Assembly: GCF_044647545.1 (NCBI RefSeq)
Contig: NZ_CP172818.1
DNA from: Escherichia coli
GTDB taxonomy: Bacteria > Pseudomonadota > Gammaproteobacteria > Enterobacterales > Enterobacteriaceae
Length of the DNA: 64,000 nucleotides
Strand: one strand, 5' to 3'
The notes under the pieces are model-generated. The model was given only the letters and a program-made list of their open reading frames with translations, was not told the DNA's origin and made no database searches. Position 1 is the first letter of the stretch; each line of letters opens with the position of its first letter. This document shows, piece after piece, positions 7,869 to 8,507 of the stretch. The position numbers and the translations under genes are program-made.

Positions 7869-8045
7869 GTGAAACAAAGCGAGTTCAGACGTTGGCTCGA
7901 ATCTCAGGGCGTCGATGTAGCGAATGGCAGCAACCATTTAAAACTGAGGTTTCATGGGAGGCGCAGTGTCATGCCGCGTCACCCCTGCGATGAGATTAAA
8001 GAACCATTGCGTAAAGCAATCCTGAAACAACTCGGTTTGAGTTAA
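7869..8045 (+). CDS. hicA: HicA mRNA-interferase toxin (type II TA)
   Basis: Hand-translated 58-aa GTG-start ORF (absent from the track): MKQSEFRRWLESQGVDVANGSNHLKLRFHGRRSVMPRHPCDEIKEPLRKAILKQLGLS; directly upstream of hicB. Confidence 0.85.
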   Translation: MKQSEFRRWLESQGVDVANGSNHLKLRFHGRRSVMPRHPCDEIKEPLRKAILKQLGLS

Positions 8046-8069
8046 TCGCCAATTAAAAAGGTTAATGAC

Positions 8070-8507
8070 ATGCGAGAGACAGTCGAAATTATGCGTTATC
8101 CCGTCACTCTTACACCCGCGCCGGAAGGCGGTTATATGGTTTCTTTTGTGGATATCCCTGAAGCGTTGACCCAGGGCGAAACAGTTGCTGAAGCGATGGA
8201 AGCGGCAAAAGATGCTTTACTGACCGCATTTGATTTTTATTTTGAAGATAACGAGCTTATCCCGTTACCTTCGCCATTAAACAGTCACGATCACTTTATT
8301 GAAGTGCCTTTGAGCGTCGCCTCTAAAGTATTGCTGTTAAATGCTTTTTTACAGTCAGAAATCACTCAGCAAGAGTTAGCCAGGCGAATTGGCAAACCTA
8401 AACAGGAGATTACTCGCCTATTTAATTTGCACCATGCGACAAAAATCGACGCCGTCCAGCTCGCGGCTAAGGCGCTTGGCAAAGAGTTATCACTGGTGAT
8501 GGTTTAA
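8070..8507 (+). CDS. hicB: HicB antitoxin (RNase-H-like fold plus DNA-binding C-terminus)
   Basis: 145-aa ORF; an alternative start at 8091 (MRYPVTL...) gives 138 aa. Confidence 0.88.
   Translation: MRETVEIMRYPVTLTPAPEGGYMVSFVDIPEALTQGETVAEAMEAAKDALLTAFDFYFEDNELIPLPSPLNSHDHFIEVPLSVASKVLLLNAFLQSEITQQELARRIGKPKQEITRLFNLHHATKIDAVQLAAKALGKELSLVMV

Follow-up and report, generated by a model that had tools for sequence, protein, structure and literature searches.

The window analysed here, a 64,000-nucleotide (64-kb) stretch of an Escherichia coli genome, contains two adjacent genes on the plus strand, hicA and hicB, with the toxin gene directly upstream of the antitoxin gene (Table 1). Judged from its sequence, the locus is almost certainly the E. 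coli chromosomal operon for the HicAB toxin-antitoxin pair (hicAB, formerly yncN/ydcQ), present in intact form and with the same protein products as in K-12. The E. coli hicAB system is already known, having been characterised genetically, biochemically, and structurally in K-12, and the copy in the window is protein-identical to it. A preliminary description, made from the sequence alone, had proposed a type II toxin-antitoxin module of the hicAB type with the toxin gene first, and this proposal is borne out by the identity of both products to chains of solved structures (6HPB, 6HPC, and 6U0I) and by their Pfam domains.

Table 1. Features of the hicAB locus, in window coordinates
Feature	Position	Strand	Description and basis
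yncJ-hicA intergenic region	7648..7868	+	Bounds from the RefSeq annotation of the identical locus; houses the hicAB promoters according to the literature
Palindrome GTAAACA-ctaa-TGTTTAC	7819..7836	.	Perfect; candidate HicB operator (hicO) of P2
Extended −10-like sequence TGaTATACT	7842..7850	+	One mismatch; candidate −10 element of P2, from sequence
hicA Shine-Dalgarno sequence GGAGG	7860..7864	+	4 nt before the GTG; predicted pairing with the 16S 3′ end, −11.1 kcal/mol
hicA	7869..8045	+	GTG start, 58 aa (MKQSEFRRWLESQGVDVANGSNHLKLRFHGRRSVMPRHPCDEIKEPLRKAILKQLGLS); ORF list, 6HPB_A identity, PF07927, RefSeq CDS
hicA-hicB spacer	8046..8090	+	45 nt to ATG 8091; contains the in-frame ATG 8070
hicB	8091..8507	+	ATG start, 138 aa; alternative 145-aa form from ATG 8070 (8070..8507)

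The 951-bp stretch at 7650–8600 has exact (100%) counterparts in many RefSeq E. coli chromosomes, among them those of FDAARGOS_497 and an ST648 strain, and all or part of it is present in 5414 of the 5426 complete E. coli genomes; the locus matches K-12 at 98.1%. The gene order in the identical RefSeq loci is rlhA, yncJ (minus strand), hicA, hicB, and ydcR, placing hicA and hicB between yncJ and ydcR. K-12 hicAB (b4532/b1438; complex 6HPB) has the same neighbours, and in K-12 MG1655 the two proteins are listed under the same accessions, WP_000813794.1 (HicA) and WP_001270286.1 (HicB). The two copies do not differ in the hicA Shine-Dalgarno sequence, in the spacer, or anywhere in the 182 bp (7687–7868) that directly precede hicA. 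Differences from K-12 comprise 12 substitutions in the genes (2 in hicA and 10 in hicB), all of them synonymous, and 3 substitutions in the distal intergenic region (7650, 7664, and 7686).

In the upstream flank, rlhA (23S rRNA 5-hydroxycytidine C2501 synthase) corresponds to a mechanical ORF at 5322–7325 (+), which starts at GTG 5322 and encodes 667 aa; the RefSeq start lies 42 nt further on, at the equivalent of window position 5364.

The toxin gene and its annotation

The 58-aa product of hicA matches PDB 6HPB chain A, "mRNA interferase toxin HicA", over 58 of 58 residues at 100% identity (E=1.9e-36). It also matches the Pfam family HicA_toxin (PF07927; E=3.7e-7, 30.6 bits), with residues 5–57 aligned to model positions 3–58 of 58. 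The GTG-initiated ORF is thus found upstream of hicB as the preliminary description had it, below a 60-aa cut-off, and the HicA-family profile match that it named as the check on the assignment is present. Members of the HicA family (PF07927/COG1724) are small (50–100 aa), single-domain proteins having a dsRBD-like fold (PMC11594946). At 58 aa the product falls within this size range, and its fold is known because its sequence is identical to that of the solved chain. Residue 23 of the ORF is a histidine (...NGSNH23LKL...) at the conserved catalytic position; the catalytic role of His23 in E. coli HicA has been described (PMC8138530, PMC11594946).

The start of hicA is well defined. The upstream in-frame stop is the TGA at 7842–7844, after which GTG 7869 is the earliest codon at which translation could begin; since the next in-frame start, Met35, lies downstream of the catalytic His23, GTG 7869 is the only viable one. 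The RefSeq CDS WP_000813794.1 has the same coordinates, both in the identical locus and in K-12.

The reading that the 58-aa ORF is a chance ORF, and that hicB is the only real gene, has a vanishingly small probability. The ORF is short, has a non-ATG start, and lacks an NCBIfam match, but its product matches a crystallised protein at 100% identity, its Pfam match spans the whole HicA model, it is preceded by a strong Shine-Dalgarno sequence, and it is annotated in every sampled genome that has an intact copy. The chance reading is refuted by the 6HPB_A identity together with the PF07927 match, and we treat the ORF as hicA throughout. A minimal ATG-TGA "start-stop" in another frame (gATGTGa, 7867–7872) overlaps the hicA GTG; nothing points to a meaning for it.

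The preliminary description further held that automated calling would miss hicA, and here the RefSeq records say otherwise. From the ranked list of 5409 matching E. coli genomes we drew 60 records at even intervals. These comprised three classes: records in which the gene is intact and carries the annotation [quoted passage not shown] (38 of 60); records with a frameshifted hicA pseudogene (9 of 60); and records with only a hicB remnant and no hicA to call (13 of 60). Because hicA is annotated in 38 of the 38 sampled genomes with an intact gene, neither the small size of the product (58 aa) nor the GTG start evidently keeps the NCBI pipeline from finding it. The appearance of hicA as a "hidden gene" is an artefact produced by a fixed 60-aa ORF cut-off, which alone conceals it. 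The lesson is therefore methodological: such a cut-off hides small toxins like HicA, and standard pipelines do not share this blind spot for hicA.

Searches with other profile collections were less informative. NCBIfam release 20 contains no HMM that matches E. coli HicA or HicB at E<=0.001, and the names given to the two proteins by PGAP must therefore stem from another type of evidence. PADLOC has no profile matching HicA, and for HicB returned only marginal HTH-type matches (E of about 2e-3 to 8e-3), which are uninformative. Profile support for the module is accordingly that of Pfam, at moderate scores (~30 bits), accompanied by exact identity to solved structures.

The antitoxin gene and its start

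HicB has two recognisable domains. In particular, the N-terminal domain matches Pfam PF15919 (HicB_lk_antitox; E=1.3e-7) over residues 10–74 of the 145-aa form, returning the HicB-family match that the preliminary description had proposed to look for, and the C-terminal domain matches HTH_3 (PF01381; E=2.8e-7) over residues 95–141. In the HicB family (PF15919/COG1598), the toxin is bound by an N-terminal domain that resembles part of RNase H, and DNA by a C-terminal HTH or RHH domain, which in E. coli HicB is an HTH of the Xre type. Both possible forms of the protein have been crystallised: the 138-aa form is identical to 6HPB_B and 6HPC, which begin at the second Met, and the 145-aa form is identical to 6U0I_A.

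The choice of start determines the distance between the genes. From the end of the hicA stop codon at 8045, 24 nt separate hicA from the first in-frame ATG, at 8070, and 45 nt separate it from the RefSeq/6HPB start at 8091; neither value is the 25 bp given in the preliminary description. The RefSeq CDS WP_001270286.1 starts at the equivalent of 8091, also in K-12.

Synthesis of HicB from ATG 8070 as a 145-aa protein, instead of or besides the 138-aa form, is unlikely, though it has some points in its favour. Specifically, ATG 8070 comes first among the starts in the ORF; it is preceded at normal spacing by a weak AAGG Shine-Dalgarno sequence (predicted 16S pairing −3.4 kcal/mol), whose paired stretch ends at −8; ATG 8091 is preceded by equally weak pairing (−3.0 kcal/mol), which ends at −14, so that spacing is the better for 8070; and the 145-aa form was the one used for crystal construct 6U0I. 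Against this, RefSeq, including its K-12 entry, and the 6HPB and 6HPC structures take the 138-aa form, and the Pfam HicB model begins only at residue 10 of the 145-aa form. Moreover, tblastn alignments to distant, plasmid-borne HicB homologues start at residues 6–22 in nearly all cases sampled, mostly at residues 7–10, indicating that the seven extra N-terminal residues are not conserved. The RefSeq, 6HPB, and 6HPC start, the start of the Pfam model, and the starts of the tblastn alignments thus favour the 138-aa HicB and the 45-nt spacer, and these are the forms listed in Table 1.

Promoter region, translation signals, and proposed mechanism

The E. coli hicAB operon has been reported to have two promoters (PMC8138530, PMC11594946, PMC6957337). 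[quoted passage not shown] At the downstream promoter, P2, which gives rise only to HicB, repression is exerted by HicB alone and lifted by excess HicA. P2 is described as antitoxin-repressed, with a transcript that begins at the hicA ribosome-binding site (PMC7167474).

The region upstream of hicA contains candidate elements for P2. A custom scan allowing 7-bp arms revealed the palindrome of Table 1 as the sole perfect inverted repeat of at least 7 bp in 7640–7900. By our estimate, chance alone would supply ~0.2 palindromes of this kind in the interval, so the argument for an operator is one of position rather than of statistics. In particular, the palindrome occupies the −35 position relative to the extended −10-like sequence, and a start 7–10 nt downstream of the latter is predicted to fall at ~7857–7860, at the hicA GGAGG Shine-Dalgarno sequence. 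We infer that the palindrome is the HicB operator and that TGaTATACT is the −10 element of P2, an arrangement that fits the published description of this promoter. Both elements are identical in K-12.

Standard scans were silent on these elements. A generic search for inverted repeats of length 8 or more returned nothing upstream of hicA, a strict σ70 scan returned no promoter upstream of hicA, and a terminator scan returned no terminator after hicB; the candidate −10 element was missed by the strict σ70 scan because there is no −35 match. A scan of 7640–7900 with CRP-N and CRP-S consensus sequences gave only matches of 7/10 (7671–7686 and 7738–7753), which is chance level, and did not locate P1. 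Since the region differs from K-12 at only three distal positions, the published CRP-S site is presumably present here.

A σ70-like match, ATGACA-16-AATTAT (9/12), is present at 8065–8092 (+) in the hicA-hicB spacer, in a scan that gave 3 sites against 1.5 expected. We set it aside, as its transcript would start after ATG 8091 and would not yield full-length HicB; the match is probably due to chance.

The translation signals of the two genes differ markedly. The Shine-Dalgarno sequence of the toxin gene is far stronger than those of the candidate antitoxin starts (8058–8061 and 8074–8079; about −3 kcal/mol). Such an imbalance, strong for hicA and weak for hicB, is the opposite of what would give a safe toxin-antitoxin ratio from one mRNA, and it fits the need for a P2 transcript that yields HicB only.

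The biology of the system is known from published work. E. coli HicA alone is bacteriostatic, inhibits translation, and induces ribosome-independent cleavage of tmRNA and of the transcripts of ompA, dksA, and rpoD (Jorgensen et al. 2009, summarised in PMC11594946). The rescue of hicA toxicity by hicB was likewise published in 2009 for the exact protein encoded here (Jorgensen et al., summarised in PMC11594946). Transcription of hicAB increases upon amino-acid or carbon starvation in a Lon-dependent manner (PMC11594946). The antitoxin HicB is folded, and it neutralises HicA and covers the toxin's His23 (PMC8138530); crystal complex 6HPB contains both chains, each identical to its counterpart in the window. 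The sources on mechanism used here (PMC11594946, PMC8138530, PMC6957337, PMC7167474) cite Jorgensen et al. 2009, Turnbull & Gerdes 2017, and Manav et al. 2019.

These reports suggest how the module would operate at this locus. HicA (58 aa) would cut mRNAs and tmRNA independently of the ribosome, causing growth arrest when unopposed, while HicB (138 aa) would bind HicA through its N-terminal domain, covering the catalytic His23, and would repress the proximal promoter P2 through its C-terminal helix-turn-helix. Because the toxin gene comes first, two promoters would be used: the CRP-Sxy-dependent P1 mRNA would yield both proteins, and the P2 mRNA, starting at the hicA ribosome-binding site, would yield HicB only. 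Excess HicA would free HicB from its operator, and the antitoxin would thereby be topped up. The RNase activity, the toxicity and its rescue, the Lon dependence, and the P1/P2 logic are taken from the literature on the identical K-12 proteins and should hold for the present copy to the extent that the two behave alike.

HicAB systems of other species are similar in several respects. Yersinia pestis HicA3/HicB3 and the Burkholderia pseudomallei and Streptococcus pneumoniae HicAB systems share the family, the catalytic histidine, the toxin-first order, and autorepression by HicB (PMC11594946). Several of the HicB proteins of those species have a ribbon-helix-helix domain, whereas E. coli HicB has an HTH. 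The dual-promoter arrangement has been worked out, among HicAB systems, only for E. coli (PMC11594946).

Outside the family, mqsRA, higBA, rnlAB, and Haemophilus influenzae toxTA are also toxin-first and have an extra promoter that gives antitoxin-only transcripts, and toxTA resembles hicAB further in being regulated by CRP-Sxy (PMC8138530, PMC6957337, PMC7167474). The toxin and antitoxin folds of these four systems are unrelated to those of HicA and HicB. In addition, mqsRA and rnlAB have constitutive extra promoters within the toxin gene, whereas that of hicAB lies at the toxin ribosome-binding site and is antitoxin-repressed (PMC7167474).

Variation of hicAB across E. coli

At least 80% of the 639-bp hicAB module is held by 4253 of the 5426 complete genomes, and two deletions were noticed among the genomes. 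The first is a 22-bp deletion (7986–8007), flanked by a 4-bp TGCG direct repeat, which frameshifts hicA after codon 40. In genomes with the frameshift, which RefSeq labels "mRNA interferase, frameshifted", hicB remains protein-identical (WP_001270286.1). We estimate that this deletion is present in 946 of 5426 complete genomes (~17%), the count being that of genomes in the 90–95% identity band, which corresponded to the 22-bp deletion in 9 of 9 sampled rows. The second is a 445-bp deletion (7824–8268), which eliminates hicA entirely, together with one half of the palindrome proposed as the operator and the 5′ portion of hicB, and leaves a hicB 3′ pseudogene; only module positions 401–639 are kept. 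It is present in an estimated ~1156 genomes (~21%), including ST131. An apparently intact hicA is present in roughly 61% of genomes, as estimated from identity bands rather than record by record.

Because hicA is frameshifted or missing in so many genomes, the chromosomal toxin is dispensable and often lost. Matches to the HicA domain have been reported to be rare in phylogroups B2 and C (PMC10790755); the 445-bp deletion, with ST131 among its carriers, is consistent with the rarity in B2, and lineage-specific absence of hicA is not new (PMC10790755).

This variation bears on whether the module in the window could itself be a silent or decaying remnant, as it is in many other E. coli lineages. 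The two deletions, one frameshifting hicA and the other removing hicA with the 5′ part of hicB, lend this reading its plausibility, but both frames are intact here, the products match the functional K-12 proteins exactly, no difference from K-12 is present in the Shine-Dalgarno sequence, the spacer, or the 182 bp before hicA, and the divergence within the genes is exclusively synonymous. We consider a remnant highly improbable and regard the module as intact.

Across the species, hicA has been inactivated at least twice, once by the 22-bp microhomology deletion that spares hicB and once by the 445-bp deletion, which begins within the candidate operator. A broader scenario, which we view as doubtful, would be that the retained, protein-identical hicB might act independently of the toxin as a transcription factor, and, secondarily, that both the 145-aa and the 138-aa HicB are made.

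Two further observations concern database matches. PLSDB record NZ_OL790696.1, a 4.8-Mb E. coli sequence, carries the chromosomal hicB at 100% identity and looks like a chromosome filed as a plasmid. The sole Rfam match in the window is a SECIS_3 selenocysteine insertion element at 46849–46907 (+), scoring 84.3 bits against a gathering score of 63. The element presumably lies within a formate dehydrogenase selenoprotein gene; in K-12, fdnG is in this neighbourhood.
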